A DNA stretch of 64,000 nt, taken from an uncultured Alphaproteobacteria bacterium (GTDB lineage: Bacteria > Pseudomonadota > Alphaproteobacteria > RF32 > CAG-239). Below are positions 3,830 through 26,596 of the stretch, in pieces. The DNA is taken from the NCBI GenBank assembly GCA_904501925.1, contig CAJGCO010000005.1:16219-80218 (forward strand). The letters run 5' to 3'. A model generated the notes under the pieces. The model was not told the DNA's origin, did no database searches, and saw only the letters and a program-made list of their open reading frames with translations. The first letter of the stretch is position 1. Each line of letters starts with the position of its first letter. A program made the position numbers and the translations under genes.

Positions 3830-3920
3830 GTGGTTGGTTGCATATGTGTTTTATCTTAGTATTTTAATTAATTTTTTATAATATTCTGTTAGTATGCAAG
3901 TATTGCATAGGAGATTATTT

Positions 3921-5309
3921 ATGAAATTAGCTTTTAATCTAAAAGGAATGTTTTTATTTTCCCTATTTCTAATGTTTTGGCATATGTTATTGTCGGGTGT
4001 TTTTATATGTGGAAGTAGTTTGATTTTAGGTTATATGGGATATTGCTATTATTTGAAAAAAGTAAATATTTGTGATATTTTATTTAGTAGTAGTGTTATT
4101 ATTAATTTATGGTATGTTTCAAATCTTTCTATTAATATTCATCAATATGATTATTTTAATTTTTTTATGCATGCAATGTATTTTGTTGATCATGATTTTT
4201 TTGTTAAAAATCCGATTTATTATTTAAGTTCAGTATATTTTCAACCACCACTTTGGGGATTAATTGCAGGAATAGTTACAAAGATAGGTGTAATTTTTTC
4301 TTTGACTAATGAATATGCGTTTGATCATGTTAGATATATTAGTTTTTTTGCAATATCAGGTACCGGAATTTTGGGGTGGAGATTTTTTAATTTATTTAAT
4401 TTAAGTAAAAAGATTTTGTTATGGGGATATGGTATGTTTTTGTTTATGCCAATTCATACTATTATGGCAGGTCTTAATAATAATGATTCATTTGTATATT
4501 TTTTAATGGTTGCAATTTTATATAAAGGTTATCAATGGTATATTGATAACAATAAAAGAGATGCATTTATTATTGCTGGATTATTTGTATTGGCTGGAAT
4601 GACAAAATTTTCGGGTTTGATGATGATGGCTTATATTGGTATTTTAGGATTGGCATTGTTGATTGAAAGTAAAAATAAACTTTCTTATAAATTGTGGAGT
4701 GAGTTCTTTATTATTGGGATGGGGGGAGTTATTGGATTTTTATGGGGGTGGTTGCTTTTATATATTGGGTTTGCTTTGGTTCCTCCACCAAATAATGTTA
4801 GTTTTCAATTTATGGGGGATTATTCTATTTTTGAACGTTTATTGGATTTTAGTAATATAAATGTTTTGTTTGCTGATGTGCGCAATGGAATAATTGAGCC
4901 AAATGTTTGGTTATCCTTGATTAAAACCTCTATATTTGGCGAGTGGAGTTGGAATAATATTTACTTTTCCTATTTGTTATATTTGAGTGCTATACTTATT
5001 TCATTGGTGTGTATTTGGTGTTTTGGAGGTGTGTTTAAGTATCAATTAGGTAAAGATTTTGGACTTAATTTGGCAATTATAGTATTAGTTTTTGTTGTAT
5101 TTATGTCATGGGCTATGTTTTGGATTGAATATCCATATTTTTGTTCAACAGAATTTAGATATGTGGTGGTATTAGTTCCAGTTGCTTGTTTATGGGTGAT
5201 GAATTATTTAAATCAAAAAAAATTGCCAATGTGGGTTAATTATACATTAGCAATTTTTTGTTGTGTTTTTGTAATGGCAAAAATTATTGTTTATTTAAGT
5301 ACCATTTAA
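3921..5309 (+). CDS. Polytopic membrane protein, GT-C-like glycosyltransferase (ArnT/PMT family-like) or O-antigen-related transferase
   Basis: It has more than 10 predicted TM helices. An AGGAG RBS lies 8 nt before the ATG at 3921 (the ORF track start at 3894 is probably too early). It is convergent with the rfb operon; the family assignment is tentative. Confidence 0.5.
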   Translation: MKLAFNLKGMFLFSLFLMFWHMLLSGVFICGSSLILGYMGYCYYLKKVNICDILFSSSVIINLWYVSNLSINIHQYDYFNFFMHAMYFVDHDFFVKNPIYYLSSVYFQPPLWGLIAGIVTKIGVIFSLTNEYAFDHVRYISFFAISGTGILGWRFFNLFNLSKKILLWGYGMFLFMPIHTIMAGLNNNDSFVYFLMVAILYKGYQWYIDNNKRDAFIIAGLFVLAGMTKFSGLMMMAYIGILGLALLIESKNKLSYKLWSEFFIIGMGGVIGFLWGWLLLYIGFALVPPPNNVSFQFMGDYSIFERLLDFSNINVLFADVRNGIIEPNVWLSLIKTSIFGEWSWNNIYFSYLLYLSAILISLVCIWCFGGVFKYQLGKDFGLNLAIIVLVFVVFMSWAMFWIEYPYFCSTEFRYVVVLVPVACLWVMNYLNQKKLPMWVNYTLAIFCCVFVMAKIIVYLSTI

Positions 5310-7642: not shown

Positions 7643-8516
7643 GTTTTTCCTCATATACTTTTTGTAAATATTGTTTATATGCTACTCCATCTTTTAGATT
7701 AGAGATAAGTTGTTGCATTTGTGTTTTATCAATAAAGCCTTGGCGAAAAGCTATTTCTTCTATGCAAGCAAGTTTTAAGCCTTGGCGTTGTTCTATGATT
7801 TGAACAAACTGTGATGATTCCATTAGGCTATCTGGTGTTCCTGCATCTAACCAAGCATTTCCTCTTTTTAGAGGGATTACGTTTAATCTTTTTTCTTTTA
7901 AGTATAATTTGTTTAGGTCGGTTATTTCAAGTTCGCCACGTTTTGATGGTTTTAATGTTGATGCTTTTTTTATGACGTCATTTGGATAAAAATATAATCC
8001 GGTTACAGCATAGTTTGATTTGGGTTTTAATGGTTTTTCTTCTATAGATTTTACAGAGTTATTTTTATCAAATTCTATAACACCGAAACGCTCTGGATCT
8101 GAAACGTGGAAGCCAAAAACTGTGGCATTGTTGGTGTCTTCATGTACAATTTTTCTATAATTTTTCATTTGTGATTGCATATAAAAGATATTATCACCAA
8201 GTATTAAACATACGTTATCGTTTTTTATGAAATCTTTTCCAATGATAAAGGCTTGAGCAATACCTTCTGGTTTTTCTTGAACTTTATATTGAAGTTTTAA
8301 GCCAAGATTTGAACCATTACCTAATAGCTTTTTTATGTTAGGGGTATCGTTAGGGGTAGAGATTATTAAAATTTCTTTGATACCAAAAAGCATTAAAGTA
8401 GATAAAGGGTAGTATATCATTGGTTTATCATATACTGGTAGTAATTGCTTGGAGATACATTGGGTTAGTGGGTATAATCTGGAGCCAGAACCTCCTGCTA
8501 ATATAATACCTTTCAT
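7629..8516 (-). CDS. rfbA: Glucose-1-phosphate thymidylyltransferase
   Basis: MKGIILAGGSGSRLYPLT nucleotidyltransferase motif; 295 aa, typical of RmlA. Confidence 0.92.
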   Translation of the reverse strand: MKGIILAGGSGSRLYPLTQCISKQLLPVYDKPMIYYPLSTLMLFGIKEILIISTPNDTPNIKKLLGNGSNLGLKLQYKVQEKPEGIAQAFIIGKDFIKNDNVCLILGDNIFYMQSQMKNYRKIVHEDTNNATVFGFHVSDPERFGVIEFDKNNSVKSIEEKPLKPKSNYAVTGLYFYPNDVIKKASTLKPSKRGELEITDLNKLYLKEKRLNVIPLKRGNAWLDAGTPDSLMESSQFVQIIEQRQGLKLACIEEIAFRQGFIDKTQMQQLISNLKDGVAYKQYLQKVYEEKHDLY

Positions 8517-8529
8517 TTTTCCTCCTTTT

Positions 8530-10590
8530 TTAGAATTTTAGTTCTTTGAGAAGATAATCTATTTGTGAGAAAATCTTAACATTTTGATATTTGTTTTCAA
8601 GTCCATAAGCATAGATATAAGGAACTTTGGATGTGAAATCTTTTAATGAAGATTGAAGTTCAGTATTTTTTTGTAAATATGTTTTATGATCTTGAGTTTC
8701 TTTAATCTTATTTCTTAATAAGCCGTTTCTTTTAGAAAATAATTGGTAGTATTTTATAATTGTTATTAAGCTTGTAATTGTAATGATAGCATATAGTTTT
8801 GATGTGTAAATGCTTAACCATAATGCAATTACAAATATAGATAATACGCTAATTATTTTAGTAAGAATATTTAGCCATTTTTTCTTAAAGTTTACAAAGT
8901 ATAAAAGTATATAAGGTGTAATTAATGTTGAGCATACAAGAATTACTAAAAATGTATGTTTAGGATTGATAGATATTTGGGAGCTACCAATAAATCCAAA
9001 AATAAGCATTGAGAGGCTAAATAATATATATGGGAGGTTAAATCTTAGTTTTAATAAGATATAACGAGTTAAATTGTCTTTATGTATATAATTGTAGGCT
9101 CTTTTTAGTTTTAATAAAGATGCTTTTGATGATGAAAAAGTTGTTTCTGATGAAGGAAATAATATTTTTAATAGATTTTTTTCTTGAGATGATAATTTAC
9201 TTATATCATCAGTTTTTTTTGCAGCTATTACTTCATCATCTTTATTTATAATATCAATTATATTTTTTGAATATAAATTTAATATTTCAGCACCAAGTGA
9301 ATGTTTATCTTGGTTGTTTATGTTTAATAAGCGACAAAAAGATGGTGTTTTAGTAATTTTTACGTTTGTTTTATCTTGGTTTTTATATACTTGTTGTAGT
9401 GATATTTTATAGGCAAGAAATATTGCTATAAGTGCAAGTAAGCCAAATATTTCTATACCAAAATCTTGAATTATATATAAAAATCTTTTGGTTAATGAAG
9501 GGGGGATAATTGTGTTTTTATCTAGAGTTAATAGTAAGTGTATGTCTTCACCAACACCTAGTGCTTGAGTGTCTGCAAAACCGATTGATCTATCATCTAG
9601 AAATGTCATTGTTACACGATTATCGTTAAAACCATCTTGGGTAGATGCTATTACGTTTTGACCTAAGAATTGATTGCCATTAGGAATGGTTACAACAGCA
9701 TTAGCTGAGCCAATTACATTTTTAATGGTTTTACCGGTTATATCCCAATAAAATTCATCAAATTTATCGTAGTTCCAAATAGTTCTATCTATGATGTATT
9801 CAAAGCGATAAGTGTAAATTCCTGTTGGAAGATTTATTGGAGTTTTAGGTTCGATATGTAAATGGTTTCCTATTTCTGTTACTTTGTATTGATATTCTTT
9901 ATCGTTGATTGTAACTTTATCTAAAGTAAAGTCTAAGCGACGTTTTTTATTTGCTCTAGAATATGTGTATTTAGGTAAAATTCTGAAAAAACCATAAGGG
10001 AAACCTTCATTGTTTGAAATGAATATAAATTCTTCGGTTACTCTGATTAGTCCGATACTTTCAATGTTTATTGTGGTAAGTAAATATGCGATATGTTCTT
10101 CGGCAGGTGCTAGAATTTCTTTGGTATCTGAAAGTTTTACTGTAACATATGGGAAATCTGGTATAAATTTTTTAGGTTCTTGAATTACTTCGCGATAGAA
10201 TTTTCCTTGTATTTCTAAATCGTTATTTATTGTGTCAGTTTTTTTGGCTTTTTTCATATTTTCTTGATAGATTTTATCATAGGCAGATATTGTTTTTTTG
10301 TTTTTTTCTTCATTTTCTACAATACTTGTGGAGCCAGGATTGCCTAATTCGTCGCTTTTAATATTAGCTTTTGTTACTTTTTCTAAGCGTTTTATTAGGT
10401 ATTTTTTTAGAGCCTCTTTATCGTTTATGTCTGGAATTTCTTTGTATAAATTTATTAAATCTTGTTCACGTTTTTGTGGTGATATAAGAGGTTTGCTTCT
10501 GGGTGATGCTATGCTATCAACGCTTGAGTTTGCATGATGAGGAGTTACTAGAGTTGTAAATAAAAATATGTATGTAAAAAACTTCTTCAT
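8530..10590 (-). CDS. Large membrane protein (DUF2207-like topology: signal peptide, extracytoplasmic N-domain, multiple TM helices in the C-terminal half), first gene of the rfb operon
   Basis: Signal peptide MKKFFTYIFLFTTLVTPHHANS and several hydrophobic helices after residue ~375. The family call is tentative. Confidence 0.5.
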   Translation of the reverse strand: MKKFFTYIFLFTTLVTPHHANSSVDSIASPRSKPLISPQKREQDLINLYKEIPDINDKEALKKYLIKRLEKVTKANIKSDELGNPGSTSIVENEEKNKKTISAYDKIYQENMKKAKKTDTINNDLEIQGKFYREVIQEPKKFIPDFPYVTVKLSDTKEILAPAEEHIAYLLTTINIESIGLIRVTEEFIFISNNEGFPYGFFRILPKYTYSRANKKRRLDFTLDKVTINDKEYQYKVTEIGNHLHIEPKTPINLPTGIYTYRFEYIIDRTIWNYDKFDEFYWDITGKTIKNVIGSANAVVTIPNGNQFLGQNVIASTQDGFNDNRVTMTFLDDRSIGFADTQALGVGEDIHLLLTLDKNTIIPPSLTKRFLYIIQDFGIEIFGLLALIAIFLAYKISLQQVYKNQDKTNVKITKTPSFCRLLNINNQDKHSLGAEILNLYSKNIIDIINKDDEVIAAKKTDDISKLSSQEKNLLKILFPSSETTFSSSKASLLKLKRAYNYIHKDNLTRYILLKLRFNLPYILFSLSMLIFGFIGSSQISINPKHTFLVILVCSTLITPYILLYFVNFKKKWLNILTKIISVLSIFVIALWLSIYTSKLYAIITITSLITIIKYYQLFSKRNGLLRNKIKETQDHKTYLQKNTELQSSLKDFTSKVPYIYAYGLENKYQNVKIFSQIDYLLKELKF

Positions 10591-11427: not shown

Positions 11428-11814
11428 ATGAAATATTTTACAGGTTTGTTGAGTTTTATTTTTTTATTAGTTGTTGGTAGTATAACTTTAATTTCTATTG
11501 CTCCACATAATGATGCAAAAATGAGAGGGTTTACTCCTTGTACGTATGAGATGGGGGTAAAACTTAGTGATCCTAGGATGAATGTAGGATTAATGTATGC
11601 TTTTAGAGTAGTAATGCAAAGTTATGTATGTTATGGCAAAGTTATTAAAGACGGGGTGCAATTATGGCTAAATGGAGAAATAGAAAAGCCTTGGGATAAT
11701 TATTTGTTTGAGCCAGAAATTTGGGAAGTTCCATCTGAGCTAGAAGAACCATTTAGTGATGATTTATTAAGAGCTAATAAATTAGATAGTGATGGTGAAG
11801 TTTTTCAATTTTAA
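11428..11814 (+). CDS. Hypothetical membrane-anchored or secreted protein
   Basis: N-terminal hydrophobic segment; the gene is tightly packed between the GlmU-like gene and pepF. Confidence 0.4.
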   Translation: MKYFTGLLSFIFLLVVGSITLISIAPHNDAKMRGFTPCTYEMGVKLSDPRMNVGLMYAFRVVMQSYVCYGKVIKDGVQLWLNGEIEKPWDNYLFEPEIWEVPSELEEPFSDDLLRANKLDSDGEVFQF

Positions 11815-11831
11815 TATTGTGAGGTGAAGAG

Positions 11832-13604
11832 ATGAAAGAGGAAAAATTACCTGTATGGGATTTGAGCGAGTTTTATGAAAGTGTTGATGATGTAAATATT
11901 GATAAAGATTTACAAGCTTATGAAAAAAAAGCAAAAAACTTTTGTAAAAAATACAAAGGTAGAGTTAAAGATTTAACTATTGATGAATATTTAAGTGCTT
12001 TTAAGGACTTGGAAAGCTTAAAGAGAATCGCAGGAAAACTTGGTGGTTTTGCTCATCTTAATGCAACAACAAATATGTTGGATACAAAAGCAACTGCGTT
12101 GTATCAAAAGGTTGAAGAAAAACTTAGTGAAGCTGGAACAAATTTGGTGTTTTGGAGTTTGGAATATAATAAACTTAGTGAAAAAAAACAAGATGAGTTA
12201 CTTAAAAAAATCCCACAATATGCGCCATATTTAAAAAGAATGAAAAAATATAAAAAGTATGAACTATCAGAGGAAGTTGAGCAAATTTTATTGCAAAAAG
12301 ATATTACTTCTGGTTCTGCATGGGTGAGATTTTATGAAGAAAGTATGTCTAGGCTTGAATACGAAGTTGATGGTAAGAAATATAATGATGCTGAGATTTC
12401 TAAGTTATGTACATCCAAAGATGAAGAGACTAGACTGAAGGCCGGTAGAGAATTAAATAAGGTTACTAGAGATAATGCATATATGATTTCTTATTGTTAC
12501 AATATGATTATGAAAGATAAGGCTATTGATGATGAGAAGAGAGGGTTTGAAACTCCTATATCTGCTAGAAATTTGGCTGAAGAAGTTAGCGATGAAACAG
12601 TTAATTGTTTGGCTGATACTGTTAAGGAAAATTATAAAAATATAGCGTGGAGATTTTATAAAATAAAAGCCCATCTTATGGGAAAAGAGAAAATTCATTA
12701 TTGGGATAGAAACGCTCCATTGAATATTGAAGATGACAGAGAGTATAGCTGGAAAGAAAGTGTAGATATGGTTTTGAATGCGTATAAGGAATTTTCGCCA
12801 AAACTATACAAGATTGCAAAAGATTTTTTTGAAAATGATTGGATTGATGTGGCGCCTAAAAAAGGAAAAAGAAGTGGTGCTTTTTGTTCATCTCCTTTGG
12901 TTAAAGGACATCCTTTTTTGATGTTAAATTTTGTTGGGCAAAAAAGAGATGTATTAACTCTGGCTCATGAATTAGGTCATGGTTGTCATCATCAGCTAAG
13001 ACGTAATAATGGTGAGTTAAATGAACGTACTCGTATGACAACTGAAGAGGTTGCTAGTGTGTTTGGTGAGATGTTGGTTTTCCAATCAATGTTAAAAAAA
13101 GCTGTAAGTGAAAATGAAAAGATTGCATTATTGGTTATGAAAATTAACGATATGATTAATACAGCGATACGTCAGATTGCATTTCACTTTTTTGAAAAAA
13201 GAGCTCATGATGAAAGAAAAATGGGAGAAGTGTCTCATGAGAGATTGTCTCAAATTTGGATGGAAGAAATGAAAGAAAGTCTTGGTCCTGATGTGGTTGT
13301 TGACGATAGTGTTGACTATATTTGGGGTGGAATTGGACACTTTTTCTTCTTGCCGTTTTATGTTTATGCATATTCTTTTGCTGATTGTGTTGTCAACTCT
13401 TTGTATTGGTTAAAGATGCAAAACAAAATTGAGAATTTTGAAGACAAGTATTTAGAGTTATTATCAAAGACTGCTATTGGTGATTATGATGATATATTTA
13501 AGGAATTTGGCGTAAATCCTAAAGATAAGGATTTTTGGCAAGGTGGACTTAATTTGATTGATTATTATTTAAATGAGTTAGAGAAGCTTGTTTATAATAA
13601 ATAA
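11832..13604 (+). CDS. pepF: Oligoendopeptidase F (M3B family)
   Basis: HELGHGCHH zinc-binding HExxH motif; 590 aa, typical of PepF. Confidence 0.85.
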   Translation: MKEEKLPVWDLSEFYESVDDVNIDKDLQAYEKKAKNFCKKYKGRVKDLTIDEYLSAFKDLESLKRIAGKLGGFAHLNATTNMLDTKATALYQKVEEKLSEAGTNLVFWSLEYNKLSEKKQDELLKKIPQYAPYLKRMKKYKKYELSEEVEQILLQKDITSGSAWVRFYEESMSRLEYEVDGKKYNDAEISKLCTSKDEETRLKAGRELNKVTRDNAYMISYCYNMIMKDKAIDDEKRGFETPISARNLAEEVSDETVNCLADTVKENYKNIAWRFYKIKAHLMGKEKIHYWDRNAPLNIEDDREYSWKESVDMVLNAYKEFSPKLYKIAKDFFENDWIDVAPKKGKRSGAFCSSPLVKGHPFLMLNFVGQKRDVLTLAHELGHGCHHQLRRNNGELNERTRMTTEEVASVFGEMLVFQSMLKKAVSENEKIALLVMKINDMINTAIRQIAFHFFEKRAHDERKMGEVSHERLSQIWMEEMKESLGPDVVVDDSVDYIWGGIGHFFFLPFYVYAYSFADCVVNSLYWLKMQNKIENFEDKYLELLSKTAIGDYDDIFKEFGVNPKDKDFWQGGLNLIDYYLNELEKLVYNK

Positions 13605-13612
13605 TCGAGATA

Positions 13613-13648
13613 AAAAATAGCCTCTCAAATGAGAGGCTATTTTTTTGT
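13613..13648 (+). terminator. Rho-independent terminator after pepF
   Basis: Hairpin atagcctctca aat gagaggctat followed by a T-run. Confidence 0.8.
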
Positions 13649-13664
13649 GTGGGAGTTATAAGGT

Positions 13665-14507
13665 TTAGAAAATATCTAAACTTTTACGAACCTCATCAAA
13701 TTGTTTTAATGTAGATAAAACAGATTTCATATCAGCAAGAGCTATTGTGTTTGGACCATCTGATAAAGCTTTATCTGGATTTTCGTGAGTTTCGATAAAC
13801 ACAGCTGCAACACCAACAGCAACAGCTGCACGAGCTAAAACTGGAGCGAATTCTCTTTGTCCACCAGAGCTTCCCCCCATACCACCAGGTTGTTGTACAG
13901 AGTGTGTTGCATCAAAAATGATAGGGCAACCAGTATCATGAGCCATTCTAGGTAAACCACGCATATCTGTAACAAGAGTGTTATAACCAAAACTTGTACC
14001 ACGCTCTGTTAAACAAACATTTGAATTACCTGATTCATCGCATTTTGTAACTAGATTTTTTGCTTCCCATGGAGCTAAAAATTGTCCTTTTTTGATGTTT
14101 ACAACTTTATTTGTTTGAGCTGCAGCAACAACTAAGTCTGTTTGACGGCAAAGAAAGGCAGGGATTTGTAGCATATCAACATGTTGAGCTACAATAGCGC
14201 ATTGTTCTTTTTCGTGAACGTCTGTAACGATTGGTACGTTGTTATATAATTTTTTTATTTCATCAAAGGTGCGTAAGCCTTCTTCAATACCTACACCACG
14301 AGCACCATTGATAGAGGTACGATTGGCTTTATCAAAAGAGGCTTTGAAGATATATGGGATATTAAGTTCTTTGGTGATTTCAATCATTGCGCCTGCGATA
14401 TCAATAGCATGTTGGCGACTTTCTATTTGACAAGGTCCACATAATAACCCAAATGGTAGGTCATTACTAAGGTTTACTCCATTTACATTAACAATTCTTT
14501 GTTTCAT
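13665..14507 (-). CDS. kdsA: 2-dehydro-3-deoxyphosphooctonate aldolase (KDO-8-P synthase)
   Basis: N-terminus NVNGVNLSNDLPFGLLCGPCQIES and a length typical of KdsA. Confidence 0.9.
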   Translation of the reverse strand: MKQRIVNVNGVNLSNDLPFGLLCGPCQIESRQHAIDIAGAMIEITKELNIPYIFKASFDKANRTSINGARGVGIEEGLRTFDEIKKLYNNVPIVTDVHEKEQCAIVAQHVDMLQIPAFLCRQTDLVVAAAQTNKVVNIKKGQFLAPWEAKNLVTKCDESGNSNVCLTERGTSFGYNTLVTDMRGLPRMAHDTGCPIIFDATHSVQQPGGMGGSSGGQREFAPVLARAAVAVGVAAVFIETHENPDKALSDGPNTIALADMKSVLSTLKQFDEVRKSLDIF

Positions 14508-14590
14508 TGTAATCTCCTTAAGTTTTACATATTAGTGAGGATATGTGGTGTTTTTGAATATGTCAATACAATTAGTTTTATTCTTGGAGT

Positions 14591-15682
14591 TTATTCTATG
14601 TAATTTTTAATAAAACGAGTATTTTTACCAATGTTAGATATTACTTCATAAGCGATTGTATCTGAAGCATGAGCAATATCATCTAATGTATAATCATTGT
14701 TTATGATATAGGCAAAATCACCACATTGTAGATTATTAATGCAACTTATATCACAAATTATGTTATCCATGGATACGCGACCAATTATTGGGCAAAAGTG
14801 GGGAGTGTTGTTCGAATCGTAAATAACTACTTTGCCTCGATTTGAAAGAGAACGAGATATTCCATCACCATAACCGATTGAAACAATAGCTGTTTTTGTT
14901 TCTTTGAGTGCTTTATATGTTGCGCCATAGCCAACGTATTCATCTTTTTTTATGGTTTTAATTTGTAATATAGGGGCTTTAATTTCTATAACGTTTTGCA
15001 TGGTGTTGGTGCGATATGGGGTTGTGTTGATGCCATAAATTGCGGCTCCTAAGCGAACCATGTCAAAGTGATAGTTTGAATTTATAAAAATACCATCAGA
15101 AGCAGAAAGAGTTGCTTTTGTATTAGGGAAAAATTTGTTTTTAATTTGGATGAAATTTTTTAGTTGATATTCGTTCATGAAATGAGCAGGGGCATCTGCG
15201 CAAGATAGGTGAGAAAGCACATATGAAAATGAGTTTAACTCATTTTGGGATAATTTTTCTAATTCATTGATTGTAAATCCTAATCTATTAAGACCTGTTT
15301 CCACTTGAATTATGGGCGAAATTTTTTGATATAAAGGAGTTTGTTTGAAGTATGCGAACATTTCAGGAGAGCATATTACAGGAATTAAATTATGTTCAAT
15401 AAAATATGGAAGGCTATCTTTCCCAATTCCTTGTAAAACATATATGTTGGCATCTTTTAGGTATGGGGCAACTATAGCACCTTCTTTAGCGTGTGCTACA
15501 AAAAAGTCTTTACAACCGGCGTTATATAGGGTTTGTGATATTTTTATTGCGCCTAATCCGTAGGCATCGTCTTTGATTACTGCGCTAGGCGTTGCGTTAG
15601 GGCATAAATTTTTTAGAGTTAAATAATTTTTTGTTATTTTTTTTAGATTGATATTTAGGATAGGTGTGGTATATATAGTCAT
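14591..15682 (-). CDS. alr: Alanine racemase
   Basis: AVIKDDAYGLGA (PLP-lysine motif region) and a length typical of alanine racemase. Confidence 0.85.
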   Translation of the reverse strand: MTIYTTPILNINLKKITKNYLTLKNLCPNATPSAVIKDDAYGLGAIKISQTLYNAGCKDFFVAHAKEGAIVAPYLKDANIYVLQGIGKDSLPYFIEHNLIPVICSPEMFAYFKQTPLYQKISPIIQVETGLNRLGFTINELEKLSQNELNSFSYVLSHLSCADAPAHFMNEYQLKNFIQIKNKFFPNTKATLSASDGIFINSNYHFDMVRLGAAIYGINTTPYRTNTMQNVIEIKAPILQIKTIKKDEYVGYGATYKALKETKTAIVSIGYGDGISRSLSNRGKVVIYDSNNTPHFCPIIGRVSMDNIICDISCINNLQCGDFAYIINNDYTLDDIAHASDTIAYEVISNIGKNTRFIKNYIE

Positions 15683-15714: not shown

Positions 15715-16437
15715 ATGCATTTTATTGATACACATATTCATTTGCAAGATTTTAGTGAAGATTTTGCACCTAAAGTCATTGATAATTATAATTTAGAAAA
15801 GATGATATTAGTTTGTGCAAGTCTTGGTGATTTAGAAAAAGTTGAAAGGTTGATTGATAGTAATCCTAATAAGTTTATAGGGGCATTTGGTTTACATCCT
15901 TGGTATTGGGAAGATATTGATAAGGTTGATGAAATTAAGAAGTATTTGATTAAATATAAGAATGCGCTTGTTGGGGAAATTGGGGTAGATAGATTGCGTG
16001 GAGAAGTAAATGATGGGCAAAGAAATTTATTTTATAAGCAACTAGAGATTGCAAAAGAATTTAATAGGCCAGTGATTATTCATGGGGCAAAAGCTTTTGA
16101 AGAATTAAAAGAATTTAGAGAAAAATTAAAAGAAGTTAAATTTGTTCATCATGGATTTGTTAAAGGAATGGATTTGATTGATTTTATTAATGAGTGTGAT
16201 GGGTATATTGGTATTGGGGCATTGTTCTTGAAACAAGAAAAAGCAAATGAAATGATAAAAAAAATGCCGTTAAATAGAATATTATTTGAGACAGATGCGC
16301 CATTTAGAGTTAGTGAAGAAAAATATGATGAAGTTTCAAGAGATAATTTATTATATTTAGCTGAGCTTATGGGGGGAGATAAAGATAAGATGGTTGCGCA
16401 ATTATACCAAAATGCAAAGGAATTTTTGAAATGTTAA
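15715..16437 (+). CDS. TatD-family metal-dependent hydrolase (paralog 1)
   Basis: MHFIDTHIHL start and the TatD fold signature. The ORF track starts 10 codons earlier at 15685. Confidence 0.7.
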   Translation: MHFIDTHIHLQDFSEDFAPKVIDNYNLEKMILVCASLGDLEKVERLIDSNPNKFIGAFGLHPWYWEDIDKVDEIKKYLIKYKNALVGEIGVDRLRGEVNDGQRNLFYKQLEIAKEFNRPVIIHGAKAFEELKEFREKLKEVKFVHHGFVKGMDLIDFINECDGYIGIGALFLKQEKANEMIKKMPLNRILFETDAPFRVSEEKYDEVSRDNLLYLAELMGGDKDKMVAQLYQNAKEFLKC

Positions 16438-20627: not shown

Positions 20628-21329
20628 GTGATGAAAAGTATGTTATTTTTTGGTTTAGTTTTAGCTCTTATGCTTGGTTGTTCTCCTGAAATAAAGGCTT
20701 ATGATGTTATATCTGAGGAAGATGAGGGGTTGTTAATAGGGGTTGTAAAAGGCGCAAAGAAGAGTGTTGAAGAGCTTAAGTTAGAGCAAAAAAAGAGGGA
20801 TGCAGACCTTAGTTTGAGAGAAAATTTGGATAGAAGTTTTGAATATCCAATTGGTGATGAGAGAAAAGAAGATAATGAATGGTTTAAGCCTTTCGAATTT
20901 GGTGAAACAAAGGAAGTTGTTGATGAGGCTTTTGAAAAAGTTAAAGATGAATATAAAACAAGAGCAAATGATTGTTTTGAAAGTCATTTAGGTAATTATG
21001 GTATAGAAAGAGCAATATCTAGCGATGGTAATGTATATGATAATACTGCAATGATGAGTGTGAATTTTGAGGGAGCAAATTCTTGTTTATCAGATTTAGG
21101 TAATGAAATTTTAGATGAATTTTATGGATCAGATATTGATAAAATCAAAGAGTATGAAGAAAAAATTGCTAATTTCTATATGAGTGGAACCGGTGTTGTT
21201 ATGGATCCTTCGTTTTGTGGTGAAAGATGTAGTTTGAAGGCTTTATTTGATATGCAATTATCTAAAACAACAGAATTTAAAAAACTACTAAATGAATTGG
21301 TTGATAATGCGCCAAAAGTGAGTAATTAA
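20628..21329 (+). CDS. Hypothetical lipoprotein
   Basis: Signal peptide with lipobox LMLGCS; acidic, coiled-coil-like sequence. Confidence 0.5.
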   Translation: MMKSMLFFGLVLALMLGCSPEIKAYDVISEEDEGLLIGVVKGAKKSVEELKLEQKKRDADLSLRENLDRSFEYPIGDERKEDNEWFKPFEFGETKEVVDEAFEKVKDEYKTRANDCFESHLGNYGIERAISSDGNVYDNTAMMSVNFEGANSCLSDLGNEILDEFYGSDIDKIKEYEEKIANFYMSGTGVVMDPSFCGERCSLKALFDMQLSKTTEFKKLLNELVDNAPKVSN

Positions 21330-22369
21330 TGCAAGAAGAAATTTTATCGCCAGATAGTAACTCTTATTTAATTGGCCATGATGCTGAAGTGGACTTGTTT
21401 TTAAAGTCATTTAATTCTAAATCTTTGCATCATGGGTGGTTAATTACTGGAGATGAGGGAATCGGCAAAGCTACTCTGGCATACAAAATTGCTAGGTTTT
21501 TGCTTTTGGCTGAAGACGATAAAGAGTATAAAACAATTGATGTAGCTATGGATAATCCTGTTTTTGGGCAGGTTGTTCAGCGTTCTCATCCTGATTTTAA
21601 GGTTTTAGAGAGAGATTATACAGAAACGGATAAAAAGAAATTGCTTAAGGCTATTAAGCAAGGTGATGAAATTGATAATGAGTTAAAAGGAAGTTTAAAA
21701 CGTTCTTCGGTTATTAAAGTTGAAGATGTGAGAGATGTTGTTTCTTTTTTATCAAAAAGTTCGTTTAATAATGGATGGCGTGTAGTGATTGTTGATAGTG
21801 CTGATGATTTGAATACGTCTAGTGCTAATGCTTTACTTAAGATCTTAGAAGAACCACCTGCAAAAAGTATTTTATTATTGTTGTCTCATAATCCTGGTAA
21901 ATTATTACCTACTATTCGTTCTAGGTGTGCAAGGCTTGCTTTAAAGCCGTTAGAGGATACTGAAGTTGCTAGTTTGTTAAGACGATATATGCCTGAGTTG
22001 AAAGAAGTAGAGGTTCAAGGTTTGGTTAAAATTTCTGGAGGAAGTATTGGTAGGGCAATTAAATATGCAAGAAATAATGCTCTAGAAATGTATGAGAGTA
22101 TTCAAAAGGTTTGTTATGCTGGTAGTAAGTTTGATGGTAGTGTTATGTTAGATTTAGCTAACGATGTGGCAAATGATGAGGATTGTTGGGATTTATTTGC
22201 AGAGCTTGTGTGTCGTTTTGCTCGAGATAATTTAAAAGATGCAAAAAATCCTCGTGAATTTTATGAGGTGTATGAAAATATATTAAAAATATTAGATGAA
22301 ACATTGAGGTTGAATATGGATAAAAAACAATCATGTATTCAGATTTTGTATCAGTTATCACAGGTATAA
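21329..22369 (+). CDS. holB: DNA polymerase III subunit delta prime
   Basis: AAA+ clamp-loader features (HHGWLITGDEGIGKATLA, SRC motif TIRSRCARL). Confidence 0.82.
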   Translation: MQEEILSPDSNSYLIGHDAEVDLFLKSFNSKSLHHGWLITGDEGIGKATLAYKIARFLLLAEDDKEYKTIDVAMDNPVFGQVVQRSHPDFKVLERDYTETDKKKLLKAIKQGDEIDNELKGSLKRSSVIKVEDVRDVVSFLSKSSFNNGWRVVIVDSADDLNTSSANALLKILEEPPAKSILLLLSHNPGKLLPTIRSRCARLALKPLEDTEVASLLRRYMPELKEVEVQGLVKISGGSIGRAIKYARNNALEMYESIQKVCYAGSKFDGSVMLDLANDVANDEDCWDLFAELVCRFARDNLKDAKNPREFYEVYENILKILDETLRLNMDKKQSCIQILYQLSQV

Positions 22370-23734: not shown

Positions 23735-24034
23735 ATGAGCGAAAATATTACAAAAGAAATTGAACAAATCAATACTGAAACATCTGAAAGTATTGATAAA
23801 TTTTTGTATCGGATTATAAATTTATTTTACATTATCAGCCCACTTAAGACGGCAAAACCATTCGTTTTTATCTTTTTTCCAAGTTCCTTCAAGTTTTGCA
23901 CATTCTTCTTTGATTATAACATTTTCATAACAAATTCCTGTATCACTATTTTTAATATGCTAAATTTACAACTTTTTCGCGCAATATATCAAGCTTGTTT
24001 TGAGAGGTTTGAGGTGTTTCAGGTTTTGCTTTAG
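23735..24034 (+). CDS. Possible small protein (doubtful), overlapping the opposite-strand ORF 23952-24203
   Basis: It is preceded by the same tatatgaaaggata-N-ATG Shine-Dalgarno context found before both toxin genes. The sequence becomes F-rich low complexity after ~35 aa. Confidence 0.25.
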   Translation: MSENITKEIEQINTETSESIDKFLYRIINLFYIISPLKTAKPFVFIFFPSSFKFCTFFFDYNIFITNSCITIFNMLNLQLFRAIYQACFERFEVFQVLL

Positions 24035-24203
24035 GTCTTTCAACACCTTGCTCTTCTCGCAATTTCTTGATAATACTTAATTGGTTTGCCATATCTAGCT
24101 TTTTCAAAGCCATTCTTTGTTTATCTGTTAAAGTTAATCCATCTAGCGAAAAATCTTCATCTTCCGGAAGTAAAGAGTTTGATTGCTTCGTGTTTGACTT
24201 CAA
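23952..24203 (-). CDS. Hypothetical small charged protein (83 aa)
   Basis: ORF with a non-biased, charged composition, immediately downstream of immunity-like gene 1. Confidence 0.4.
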   Translation of the reverse strand: MKSNTKQSNSLLPEDEDFSLDGLTLTDKQRMALKKLDMANQLSIIKKLREEQGVERPKAKPETPQTSQNKLDILREKVVNLAY

Positions 24204-24216
24204 TCTATCATTATTG

Positions 24217-24272
24217 CTACATTAATTGTTATTTAAGAGCAACAAGTTCCTCTTAAATAACAATTAATGTAG
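24217..24272. repeat. Perfect 23-bp inverted repeat (ctacattaattgttatttaagag / ctcttaaataacaattaatgtag) with a 10-nt spacer
   Basis: Read directly from the sequence. The right arm overlaps the last 13 codons and stop of the 125-aa ORF. Confidence 0.9.
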
Positions 24273-24610
24273 TTATAAACAATAACTAAAAAAATCAATG
24301 ACAAAATTAATAAAGCTTTTGTTTTGTATTTTTTTAATAACAAAAAAAATGAAAAAATAGTAAATATTAGTGGAAATACAATATTGATAATAATATTTAA
24401 ATATTCTAACAAGGAAGGTTTTTCTATACTGAAAAAAGATGGTGTATAGTTAATGTGCCAGTATTCATAATCAAAAATAAGATAATATAACTCAAATAAA
24501 GAAAATATTAGTATTGATAGATTAATAACCATAAACAAGGTATATATAGACCAAAATAAAAATTTTTTGAATAACTGAATAAATTTATCTTTTGACATTA
24601 ATATTTCCAA
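24233..24610 (-). CDS. Small multi-TM membrane protein, candidate immunity protein for toxin candidate 1
   Basis: 125 aa with 3-4 hydrophobic helices, lying 55 nt downstream of the toxin-like gene on the same strand. Confidence 0.5.
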   Translation of the reverse strand: MEILMSKDKFIQLFKKFLFWSIYTLFMVINLSILIFSLFELYYLIFDYEYWHINYTPSFFSIEKPSLLEYLNIIINIVFPLIFTIFSFFLLLKKYKTKALLILSLIFLVIVYNYINCYLRGTCCS

Positions 24611-24665
24611 TTGTTGTTCTTATTTTGTTCACGATATACCTTGTTTATAAAATGTCAAGAAATTT

Positions 24666-25556
24666 TTATCTTAATTTTTCTTTAGGATATTTAACATTTA
24701 TTATCATATCCCGACCATATTTTTTTAATTTGTTAAAAAATTCTAATTCATGTTTTGCTAAATCAATGCATCCAGAAGATCCTAGATTAGCACCACCATG
24801 TATAGAAAATTTATTTCTATTATACATTGAATTAGTGTTAAATGGTTCTAACCAAACACGCTTTAGCCCCCATGAGTTCCAACCTCCAGGCGCCATTCCT
24901 CTACCGGTATAACCTAATAAATTACTAACTTTGTCAATATCTTGTACATTGTTTTGTTTTATTCTATAACTTCCTTCAGGTATTGGTCCTTTATTTATTA
25001 AATTTTGATATTTCTTTTCTTGATATTCGGATTTTCCGCTCATTGCTGGCAATTCTAAAATTGTATGCCCATTTTCAATAAAACGTAAATATTGACCATC
25101 AAAATCAACTCGAGATAAATTATCATAATTAATTAATTTATTATATGCATGATTTATTCGATTTATAATATTTTCATTATTTAGATTATCGTCTTCGGAA
25201 TAATCATTTAATGCTTTATAAAAACTAGGAGATAAGCTGTTATTAATTTCTCCCTGAAAATATCCTAAATTTGTTAACATTGTTTTTAATTCTTTTATTT
25301 TAGATAACGTGTCAATAGATGAATTATTACTAGAAATACTATTTTTATTATTCAAAAAATAATTTTCCAGTTGCCTTTCTTCCAAAACTTCTTCTAATGT
25401 TCCGTTAATCTTTGCAAAATCAAAAGCATAAGCATCTTGCAAATTGCCACTTCGCTCAATTTCCCCAACACTTCCGTATTTATCTAAAAGTTCATGTAAT
25501 TTCTTTTTATTTGCTTTTTTGATAGCTATTTCACTATCTCCAATTAAATTAAACAT
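24666..25556 (-). CDS. Candidate peptidoglycan-targeting toxin 1: PG_binding_1-like domain + L,D-transpeptidase-like (YkuD / Tlde1-DUF2778-like) C-terminal domain
   Basis: IKELKTMLTNLGYFQGEINNSLSPSFYKAL resembles the PG-binding domain 1 consensus. FSIHGGANLGSSGCIDL resembles the LD-transpeptidase HG...SxGC(I/V) catalytic signature. There is no signal peptide, and an AAAGGA RBS precedes the start. Confidence 0.5.
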   Translation of the reverse strand: MFNLIGDSEIAIKKANKKKLHELLDKYGSVGEIERSGNLQDAYAFDFAKINGTLEEVLEERQLENYFLNNKNSISSNNSSIDTLSKIKELKTMLTNLGYFQGEINNSLSPSFYKALNDYSEDDNLNNENIINRINHAYNKLINYDNLSRVDFDGQYLRFIENGHTILELPAMSGKSEYQEKKYQNLINKGPIPEGSYRIKQNNVQDIDKVSNLLGYTGRGMAPGGWNSWGLKRVWLEPFNTNSMYNRNKFSIHGGANLGSSGCIDLAKHELEFFNKLKKYGRDMIINVKYPKEKLR

Positions 25557-25760
25557 ATTTTATCCTTTCATATAAAAAAAGAGCTATGCACGAAGCATAA
25601 CTCTTTGGTTAAATTTAAAAACAAAAAAACTCTCCCAAAAGGAAGAGTTCCAACATATAGAATTTTAAGTATAAAATTCCATACTATCAAAATTCATACC
25701 ATCTGGTGTCACTAAAGTCAATACTTTCAGAAAATTTTAATTAAATATTTTTGATTATAT
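25557..25760 (-). promoter_or_regulatory. R1 leader copy 1, transcribed on the minus strand. It holds a sigma70-like promoter (-35 ttgact 25716-25721, 17-nt spacer, -10 tatgaat 25692-25698), a stem-loop, intrinsic terminator T1 (25622-25650, stem ctcttcc/gggagag + U7), intrinsic terminator T2 (25572-25604, 11-bp stem + U7), and an AAAGGA SD before the ATG at 25556.
   Basis: About 85% identical to 29729-29938. The hairpins have compensatory base changes between the two copies. Confidence 0.65.
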
Positions 25761-25915: not shown

Positions 25916-26596
25916 ATGCGTATATTACCAATTACTATTACGTTTGGAGGCGATATGTCTGAAGAAAAAATATCTAAATTAAAAAATATTCTACCCTATA
26001 AACACAGATTATATACTATTTTATGTTATATAGCATACATCGCTTTCATAATTTTCATGGGGTTTGTATTTTTTAGCCATGCGGATGACTTGAAAATTTT
26101 TATGAGAACAATAAGTTGGCGTCTGACGAAGCCTCAATCCGTTTTAAACATGGCGGTTGCACGTTTTACTTATAGAACATTATTGGAAGTTCCTTTAATT
26201 ATAGTTTACACAATATGTTTATTTAAATCCATAAAAGCAATAATAAACAAAACTTTTTCTTTCTATAGGATAACCATAAAATTCTTAATTATATCTGGTT
26301 TCTTCTTACCTGAGATGTTAATTTTTCCTTGTGCGTGCTCATCAGGCCAAAGAATGGGAATGTCAATATATATCTTTCTTCTAATCCCTTTAATTATGAC
26401 TATAAAAAGTTTAATTAAGAGAAGTAAGAATATAACGTCAACTTTAAAAATTATAATTAATCGAATTTTAATTGGCGCACTTTTGATGATTTCGGCAGGA
26501 TTAATAGTTGGCTTTATTACATTAGCAAATCATGATCCACATGCTGCTTATGAGATGACTGATGAGATGACTGTTAAAACATTTGAAGCTCAATAA
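25916..26596 (+). CDS. Hypothetical polytopic membrane protein (226 aa)
   Basis: 5-6 hydrophobic helices and a GGAG RBS 9 nt upstream. It is convergent with 26677-27291 and shares a terminator with it. Confidence 0.5.
   Translation: MRILPITITFGGDMSEEKISKLKNILPYKHRLYTILCYIAYIAFIIFMGFVFFSHADDLKIFMRTISWRLTKPQSVLNMAVARFTYRTLLEVPLIIVYTICLFKSIKAIINKTFSFYRITIKFLIISGFFLPEMLIFPCACSSGQRMGMSIYIFLLIPLIMTIKSLIKRSKNITSTLKIIINRILIGALLMISAGLIVGFITLANHDPHAAYEMTDEMTVKTFEAQ

Follow-up and report, generated by a model that had tools for sequence, protein, structure and literature searches.

The window analysed here is a stretch of 64,000 nucleotides from contig CAJGCO010000005.1 (positions 16,219 to 80,218) of an uncultured alphaproteobacterium. 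On its minus strand lies a gene for a chimeric protein of 296 amino acids that ends in a cell-wall enzyme of the Tlde1 type, followed by a small gene for a membrane protein. On balance, we favor the reading that this locus is a cassette of a polymorphic toxin-immunity system in uncultured gut Alphaproteobacteria, and that the toxin is delivered by a phage-derived particle rather than by a type VI secretion system (T6SS). A first-pass annotation, made from the sequence alone, had implied a T6SS effector-immunity pair. It was right that there is a real Tlde1-type toxin gene with a small membrane partner. Its T6SS reading fares less well, and it missed the N-terminal module of the protein altogether. 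The parts of the two genes are as follows.

24666 to 25556, minus strand: gene for the 296-amino-acid chimeric effector (N-terminal module, PG_binding_1-like domain, Tlde1-type domain).
25368 to 25556, minus strand: N-terminal module, helical, codons 1-63; the constant part of the family, ending at the ...EEVLEER(Q/R)L junction.
25134 to 25319, minus strand: putative degenerate PG_binding_1-like three-helix domain, codons 80-141.
24693 to 25115, minus strand: Tlde1-type LD-peptidase domain, codons 148-288, with H253 at 24800-24798, then S260, and C263 at 24770-24768.
24233 to 24598, minus strand: partner with three predicted transmembrane (TM) segments, 121 amino acids (125 from TTG 24610); the immunity candidate.

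What kind of enzyme is this? Profile searches for a YkuD or DUF2778 relationship had been set beforehand as a check, and both families score above their Pfam cutoffs. The match to Tlde1_dom (PF10908, DUF2778) reaches 43.3 bits against a cutoff of 30.1 and covers residues 169-279; that to YkuD (PF03734), over residues 150-279, is weaker (30.6 bits against 23.4). The homologs P0002-P0004 give Tlde1_dom scores of 42-45 bits. When the single sequence was searched against the PDB with phmmer there was no match, and a family profile was needed. A profile from 37 homologs matches Salmonella Tlde1a in the PDB with an E-value of 1.6e-11 and places IHGG...GSSGC over IHDSTKGYSHGC of that protein. Across the 37 homologs H253 is invariant, C263, D265, W229, R233 and R247 are each at least 90% conserved, and the consensus at the catalytic motif is FSIHGGxxxGSxGCIDL. 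Tlde1a has the motif residues H121, S128, H129 and C131 and the conserved cleft residues W93, R99 and R115 (PMC9638812). In the profile alignment, H253 is equivalent to H121, S260 to S128, C263 to C131, W229 to W93 and R247 to R115. An alignment-based AlphaFold2 model of the whole protein (mean predicted local distance difference test score, pLDDT, 84; predicted template-modeling score 0.70) gives the catalytic domain an altered LD-transpeptidase fold, nearest to that of Tlde1a. As far as residue conservation can show, then, the protein carries a Tlde1-type domain with an intact catalytic set, His253/Ser260/Cys263, and the annotated LD-transpeptidase-like His/Cys signature and Tlde1 relationship are borne out.

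The His-Cys spacing had been called short and taken to mark a divergent family. It is 10 residues, exactly as in Tlde1a, so it is no such sign. The canonical (S/T)HGChR motif is absent from the protein, whose own motif is S-S-G-C-I-D. H129 of Tlde1a, within S-H-G-C, corresponds to Ser261 and R99 to Trp235; the family consensus is G-S-x-G-C. The protein has no hydrophobic segment (maximum 19-residue hydropathy 0.39; N-terminus -0.38) and so no signal peptide, as had been noted. A housekeeping YkuD L,D-transpeptidase can be ruled out, in agreement with the annotation, because the export signal is missing and the gene is modular and cassette-like. The enzyme itself is not new: it is a further member of the already known Tlde1 family. 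A full-length copy, 96% identical, is present in another sample (locus L005). In other lineages the Tlde1 domain is fused to TssD/Hcp-like (P0073), RHS-type (P0034), DUF4157 (P0086) and MuF (P0010, P0026 and P0027) domains, which makes it a promiscuous toxin cassette with several delivery routes.

The peptidoglycan-binding segment claimed by the annotation is harder to judge. Its Pfam scores fall below the cutoffs: 13.9 bits against 23 for PG_binding_1 (PF01471), and 17.3 bits for PG_binding_2. In three homologs PG_binding_1 scores 16.3-18.5 bits at the same position, again below cutoff, and about the first 37 of the 57 model positions are covered. The more distant Tlde1 proteins P0022 and P0030 have clear PG_binding_1 domains (42 and 39 bits), and a profile of the window-type segment aligns to the P0022 domain with an hhalign probability of 71%. 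Against PDB sequences the best match of the segment profile is a weak one, to SleB (E-value 1.2). The predicted structure contains the three-helix peptidoglycan-binding fold. We read the segment, mainly on these structural grounds, as a degenerate but real PG_binding_1-type domain; the annotated likeness holds for the predicted fold and the profile alignment, not for the Pfam score.

Many database matches align to only about 21% of the 296-residue query, at 60-98% identity. The aligned part is the module, residues 1-63 (MFNLIGDSEIAIKKANKKKLHELLDKYGSVGEIERSGNLQDAYAFDFAKINGTLEEVLEER), and the model places helices at residues 5-75 with pLDDT 83-94. The Tlde1 proteins P0002, P0006 and P0007 likewise start with the module, and it also heads proteins with other C-termini. 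GH108 domains end 11 of 41 module proteins, VgrG3-like lysozyme domains another 7, and weakly GH46-like domains 3; the rest have no Pfam match. In most family members the module is followed by a conserved charged linker that runs to about residue 175, with the pattern ...SNSLLPDDEDFSLEGL...QGVEKPK...ELDVLREKV...NREIKVADNE, and then by the variable C-terminus. A profile search of 1.84 billion representatives returned 119 matches, about 55 of them to module or linker, many being short fragments. In the genome collection the module occurs only in metagenome-assembled genomes (MAGs) of uncultured gut Alphaproteobacteria, whose hosts include human, roe deer and water buffalo, and one genome may hold several copies; a metagenome scan found one further locus only (L022).

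The module matches no T6SS loading domain known in Pfam, and neither the 296-residue protein nor any of the 41 module proteins matches the MuF families PF04233 and PF06152. A model of module plus linker (P0013) is poor (pLDDT 63.5), and its best viral-structure match (E-value 0.32) is not significant. As a possible relative we rejected gp06 of BcepC6B, which follows the portal gene in the nearest deposited phages (hhalign probability 0.5%). The module is previously undescribed; the trafficking module and its phage linkage are the new part of this system.

The recurrent machinery near module genes consists of phage head and tail genes only (L001/L012, L008, L015, L010). They encode a T7-type portal (333 bits), the terminase subunits TerL and TerS, a nozzle-type tail protein and a head-fiber protein. 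In L008 the order is a head-fiber-like gene, the nozzle-type tail protein (phrog_376, E-value 3.5e-145), two unknown open reading frames (ORFs), an Sf6-type small terminase, the large terminase, the portal, a module gene, its immunity gene and an orphan fragment. The portal gene recurs in L001, L012, L008 and L015; in all of these but L015 a module gene lies directly downstream of it. Because L001 and L012 appear to come from a single organism, the module genes at portal+1 represent two distinct sources. In L010, an array of five module genes or fragments is preceded, at a distance of a few kb, by homologs of the structural genes. Wherever the contiguous sequence was long enough to judge, which is the case in four genomes, module genes lie inside a podovirus-like cluster, with further copies elsewhere.

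The nearest deposited relatives of the portal are those of BcepC6B/BPP-1-like podoviruses (31-37% identity), and the gene order of these phages (TerS, TerL, portal, gp06, gp07, major head protein) is collinear with that of the MAG cluster. The portal gene of L008 lies at 8311-9939, and L001 encodes a scaffold-like protein of 241 residues and a head protein of 299 residues at 13358-15007. Between the portal and the scaffold/head genes (L001:3307-9878; L008:13511-17300) stand an ankyrin-repeat protein, a conserved unknown protein of 512 amino acids and a GH77 4-alpha-glucanotransferase, and the order of these non-phage-looking genes is identical in three species-level bins. Portal and TerL are about 80% identical between species-level bins. 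For L008 and L015 the identity is 73% in GH77 and about 80% in the portal, a hint that the whole region is inherited vertically. Judged by gene order, the module family is recurrently linked to a podovirus-like cluster. At the end of that cluster in L001 (19223-21164) is a protein of more than 1,400 amino acids with an LPD23 (large polyvalent protein) domain.

MuF polymorphic toxin genes also sit at portal+1, and Gp7 of SPP1 binds the portal (PMC5576092). Several Tlde1 relatives carry MuF-domain matches, some of them faint. The likeness of our family to MuF toxins appears to be one of position and logic, not of homology.

How did the Tlde1 gene come to lie where it does? Comparison with a related locus, L020, shows the following features.

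24190 to 25368, minus strand: inserted segment of 1,179 nt (toxin domains, partner gene, hairpin) replacing 54 nt, from blastn of L020 against the window.
23974 to 24189, minus strand: displaced remnant of an earlier gene's linker, inside ORF 23952-24203.
24217 to 24272, no strand assigned: perfect 23-bp inverted repeat (hairpin) spanning the partner stop codon, at the right edge of the insert; no T-run.

L020 encodes P0015, a module-linker-GH108 protein whose residues 1-63 are 97% identical to the module of the 296-residue protein, and represents the uninterrupted allele. ORF 23952-24203, just downstream of the partner gene, has 90% protein identity to P0015 residues 77-154. The L020 DNA matches window positions 25809-25369 and then, at 95% identity, 24189-23974 (L020 740-955), after which homology stops; the breakpoints relative to L020 are 25369/25368 and 24190/24189. 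This alignment shows the peptidoglycan-binding and Tlde1 domains, the partner gene and the terminal hairpin as inserted just after the ...EEVLEER junction, with the old linker pushed downstream. By the same comparison, the GH108 domain of the earlier effector and its immunity gene are lost from the locus. Orphan module or linker fragments are also found in L008, L010 and L020. Displacement of toxin-immunity cassettes is a hallmark of polymorphic toxins (PMC3482391), and cassette displacement with orphan fragments, as seen here, is the signature of such a system.

The 23-bp inverted repeat is AT-rich, stable (dG -33.3 kcal/mol, z -8.9) and unique in the window. Rfam returns only chance-level matches to miRNA families for it. 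It may act as a terminator, as a recombination site or in some other way. Behind other Tlde1-partner pairs no such boundary hairpin was found; ordinary terminators with GC stems stand there instead. The flanks of the cassette vary between strains: L005, the sample with the 96%-identical locus, has a gene for an S24 (LexA/CI-like) peptidase upstream of the leader (L005:83-760) where the window has a 226-residue membrane protein. We rejected that peptidase as a candidate repressor: it recurs in no other locus. In L010, clusters of short GC-richer repeats (11650-12120 and 15850-16215; units like CTCGCAATGACGAGG) abut 5'-truncated module copies in the five-member array. These repeats could form a small repetitive element that breaks up cassettes or keeps them apart.

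The partner was first called as a small hydrophobic ORF at 24233-24610, minus strand, and annotated as an immunity candidate of 125 amino acids with three or four TM segments. ATG 24598, giving 121 amino acids, is the more likely start because the homolog in L006 begins at the equivalent methionine; three TM segments are predicted, and the pairing with the toxin is conserved. The partner in L005 is 100% identical over the 92 residues covered, and in L006 a 44%-identical homolog follows a 52%-identical toxin. Unrelated small polytopic ORFs follow the Tlde1 genes in L003/L004, L018/L019 and (uncalled) L016, so that five contexts have a small polytopic ORF behind a Tlde1 gene. Behind nearly all other module genes the next ORF encodes 130-250 amino acids with a signal-peptide or lipoprotein-like N-terminus. 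At the level of gene pairing, then, the downstream partner co-varies with the toxin. Neither Pfam nor NCBIfam has a match for the partner. The positive-inside rule would place its N-terminus in the cytoplasm and, on the periplasmic side, an aromatic and acidic loop of about 33 residues and a Cys-rich C-terminal tail. Periplasm-facing partners that vary together with the enzyme fit immunity against periplasm-acting toxins, not holins. From the conserved pairing and the topology we infer that the three-TM protein protects its producer, probably through the periplasmic loop and tail.

Upstream of the toxin gene is a leader that recurs in front of other module genes.

25557 to 25760, minus strand: conserved 5' leader with a promoter-like element, two terminator-like hairpins and a ribosome-binding site (GAAAGGA).
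25626 to 25651, minus strand: leader hairpin 1 with T-run, terminator-like; the T-run is invariant across loci.
25578 to 25606, minus strand: leader hairpin 2 with T-run, terminator-like, directly upstream of the ribosome-binding site.

The leader is 75-96% identical to the regions upstream of module genes in L005, L007, L009, L013, L002, L010 and L020 and of a second cassette in the window, described below. Its promoter-like element has a -35 sequence TTGACT (25721-25716) that overlaps the motif ATTGACTTTAGTGACA, a 17-nt spacer, and TGG-TATGAA (25698-25693). The consensus across loci is TTGAC(T/A), about 17 nt, and TGnTATGAA, with ATTGAC-N3-TGTG(A/T)CA over the -35 region. Within the window the motif is confined to the two cassettes, with one copy at each. 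A generic sigma-70 scan omits this promoter because the -10 hexamer ends in A. A scan of 2.3 kb on the minus strand found these two hairpins and no other terminator-like site, against an expected 0.7. The consensus fold of hairpin 2 keeps 14 pairs in nearly all sequences and has two covarying positions. Rfam has no family for the leader and gives only chance-level matches. In L001 and L008 a comparable hairpin and T-run separate the module gene from the portal gene. The first structural gene of L008, that of the tail operon, likewise has the motif upstream, together with an early transcribed region resembling that of the leader and a hairpin of the terminator type. These sequences suggest, with one structural-operon example, that scattered effector genes and particle genes form one regulon controlled by terminator read-through.

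How might such a system work? By analogy with Tlde1a, the enzyme would trim D-Ala4 from tetrapeptide stems in the periplasm of the target cell, exchange it for other D-amino acids, or both. Trimming of the stems would starve cross-linking and weaken the wall, while the three-TM partner would shield the producer. The module, accompanied by the charged linker in most paralogs, would target the protein into a BPP-1-like podovirus-derived particle, following the logic of MuF toxins, and scattered copies such as the window gene would be supplied to the particle in trans. These copies share a promoter, and transcription from it would have to pass two terminators; they are therefore probably switched on with the phage late genes. 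We advance the fuller version of this model tentatively, as a reading that is less likely than not: a particle, prophage or domesticated, would be conserved vertically and loaded in trans, by way of the module, with interchangeable wall-attacking effectors whose genes are scattered beside tRNAs and co-regulated with the late genes by the shared promoter and by antitermination of the two leader terminators.

Several points weigh against delivery by a phage-derived particle as we describe it. Periplasmic toxicity, immunity, packaging into a particle and co-regulation are all inferred. The toxin gene itself is not adjacent to phage genes, and homologs of portal, terminase or tail proteins are absent from all 64 kb of the window. 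The module was not found in IMG/VR viral contigs or deposited phage genomes, and comparisons with MuF, with BcepC6B gp06 and with viral structures detected no similarity. The promoter link to structural genes comes from one locus, L008. The changes to Ser261 and Trp235 mean that the exact chemistry may differ from that of Tlde1a. Tldi1a is a soluble periplasmic immunity protein with a Sec signal (PMC9638812); our partner, with three TM segments, is unlike it in predicted topology. The negative result for T6SS genes covers the ten largest ORFs of the window, the locus flanks and the Pfam-annotated neighbors of related loci, and a T6SS or another secretion system may lie elsewhere in the genome.

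What else could the locus be? GH108, lysozyme-like and SLT-like domains are typical of virion-associated hydrolases, and the portal+1 position in a podovirus-like cluster would suit a virion-internal entry enzyme, ejected to remodel or open the recipient wall for entry of DNA. The partners would then be superinfection-exclusion factors against related particles, and diversifying enzyme-inhibitor pairs would fit an arms race between phage and lysogen. We consider this unlikely, if still worth keeping in mind. A single entry enzyme would not be expected to have several paralogs scattered through a genome under promoters of their own, or orphan arrays; by analogy with Tlde1a the enzyme trims or exchanges stems and does not open the sacculus; and displacement of cassettes is the polymorphic toxin hallmark described above (PMC3482391).

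On the T6SS reading implied by the first-pass annotation, the module would be a new type of domain that loads the effector onto a VgrG, Hcp, PAAR or adaptor protein whose gene lies elsewhere in the genome, and the effector would be fired into the periplasm of neighbors. In favor of this, experiments have established Tlde1 as a family of T6SS effectors (PMC9638812), the lysozyme domain of some paralogs takes its name from VgrG3, distant Tlde1 relatives have the TssD/Hcp-like or RHS-type fusions already mentioned, and T6SS typically deploy effectors that act in the periplasm and are matched by periplasmic immunity proteins. Yet no T6SS gene is found among the ten largest ORFs of the window (PFOR, MutS, UvrB, Mur ligase and similar), nor in the locus flanks or the Pfam-annotated neighbors of related loci, where only phage genes recur; the module matches none of the Pfam loading domains, and the partner is not Tldi1-like. 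T6SS delivery seems to us improbable.

A phage-type lysis cassette, with the 296-residue protein as a signal-less endolysin and the three-TM protein as its holin, would account for the missing signal peptide, the endolysin-like pairing of peptidoglycan-binding and catalytic domains, the adjacent small multi-TM protein and the phage association of the family. It is very improbable nonetheless. Paralog partners are of the signal-peptide or lipoprotein type, not holins, and the partner lies downstream, not upstream. The 63-residue module, with about 110 residues of linker in paralogs, would have no role in an endolysin. Genomes hold many copies, PHROG lysis families give no match, and Tlde1 chemistry is not directly lytic. 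Least credible of all is an inert relic, a decaying island of recombined fragments neither expressed nor functional: the displaced fragment at 23974-24189, a frame-broken duplicate of the second cassette (27387-28091) and a GC content of 25-28% speak for decay, but the 296-residue ORF is intact with all conserved catalytic residues, its 96%-identical full-length copy in another sample has an identical partner (92 residues covered), and leader, ribosome-binding site and hairpins are conserved.

A particle-borne polymorphic toxin, the reading we prefer, has relatives in several known systems. Constant and variable parts also recombine in CdiA-CT/CdiI and in Rhs-CT orphan arrays, where C-terminal toxin and immunity cassettes are exchanged at a conserved junction and orphan fragments lie downstream. 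Our family is like these arrays in its exchange at a conserved junction and in the displaced fragments left downstream. It differs in having an unrelated constant region of 63 residues (about 175 with the linker) and a junction ...EVLEER(R/Q)L, not VENN or PxxxxDPxGL.

Tlde1a of Salmonella Typhimurium is an LD-carboxypeptidase/transpeptidase effector of the T6SS, with Tldi1a as its immunity protein (PDB 7UMA, 7UO3, 7UO8). Tlde1a consists of one domain and needs none for peptidoglycan binding (PMC9638812), whereas the window protein adds the N-terminal module and the peptidoglycan-binding-like domain and differs at the two positions named above. Here, too, the partner has three TM segments, no T6SS context is seen, and the host is an uncultured gut alphaproteobacterium. 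Tox-LD-peptidase is likewise an LD-peptidase with conserved H, S and C that serves as a C-terminal cassette in polymorphic toxin systems (Zhang et al. 2012, PMC3482391). It was reported with type II secretion system, T6SS and TcdB/TcaC trafficking and with Imm16/Imm57, not from Alphaproteobacteria and not with phage-type delivery; trafficking module and partner both differ here.

Like MuF toxins (Jamet et al. 2017, PMC5576092; Zhang et al. 2012, PMC3482391), the family has a constant N-terminus, variable C-terminal toxins and a small downstream immunity ORF, and some members, not including the window gene, lie directly after the portal in a terminase-portal module (L001/L012, L008). Unlike them, our module contains no MuF domain, many copies are far from phage genes, and the portal is of the T7/BPP-1 type. 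The toxins also differ, in that those here would act on the cell wall and have periplasmic or membrane partners; the word peptidoglycan is absent from the text of the MuF paper (PMC5576092).

Tlde1 toxins and polymorphic toxin cassettes were already known; what is new is the packaging. The module is narrowly distributed, with its roughly 55 clusters among 1.84 billion representatives, and the cell-wall enzymes attached to it are of at least five kinds, every kind having a partner gene of its own. If it is a capsid- or portal-targeting tag, phage-derived particles can deliver antibacterial enzymes that act in the periplasm; capsid-borne toxins of the MuF kind have so far been described mainly with toxins that act in the cytoplasm. 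The module would then offer a short transferable loading tag, together with natural toxin-immunity pairs from poorly studied uncultured gut bacteria. A gene with a Tlde1 domain is not by itself evidence of a T6SS.

The second cassette of the window has the same leader.

28583 to 29930, minus strand: second cassette, with its leader at 29729-29930 and the leader motif at 29885-29900.
29099 to 29728, minus strand: 209-amino-acid, weakly SLT-like protein.
28583 to 29080, minus strand: 165-amino-acid three-TM partner of the 209-amino-acid protein.

The SLT lytic-transglycosylase match of the 209-residue protein is weak (13 bits), and two homologs carry PF01464; its family gives 19 matches, all from the same Alphaproteobacteria and with variable N-termini. 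Locus L007 has the shared leader, a module-GH108 gene (P0044), its immunity gene and then an N-terminally truncated, orphan copy of the 209-residue protein. In the window the leader is joined directly to the full 209-residue gene. On this comparison, the second cassette and L007 differ by a second exchange of the same kind. The N-terminus of the 209-residue protein has no significant similarity to the short N-terminus of P0003, so a second class of module is not established. Between the two cassettes, at 27387-28091, is an inverted degenerate copy of the 3' end of the 209-residue gene (90% identity over 61 amino acids) and of the 165-residue partner (51%). The partner copy is frame-broken into three short ORFs, and the whole looks like a decaying duplicate cassette.

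The window as a whole is AT-rich (about 30-36% GC), and the stretch from 24 to 30 kb is lower still (25-28%). Divergent from the Tlde1 gene is the gene for the 226-residue membrane protein, which has five predicted TM segments (25916-26596, plus strand); a 204-residue Cys-rich protein is encoded at 26677-27291 (minus strand). Neither of these two proteins has a family match or recurs in related loci. Elsewhere in the window, the ORFs at 55354-58704 (minus strand, 1,116 amino acids) and 3894-5309 (plus strand, 471 amino acids) have no Pfam match at E <= 1e-5. The flanks of the locus include a C26 peptidase gene and three ORFs assigned by eye: one of 346 residues (21329-22369), taken for DNA polymerase III delta prime, and two, at 31001 and 31610, that resemble ribosomal proteins L10 and L7/L12. 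No further genes are common to the window and the flanks of L001 and L002, and synteny is therefore uninformative about function. In five loci a tRNA gene lies just beyond the leader: Gly in the window (30478-30551), Glu in L010 (9817-9891), Ser in L013 (6343-6433) and L020 (54-141), and Thr in L007 (446-521). This arrangement suggests that the effector islands occupy tRNA-adjacent hot spots.

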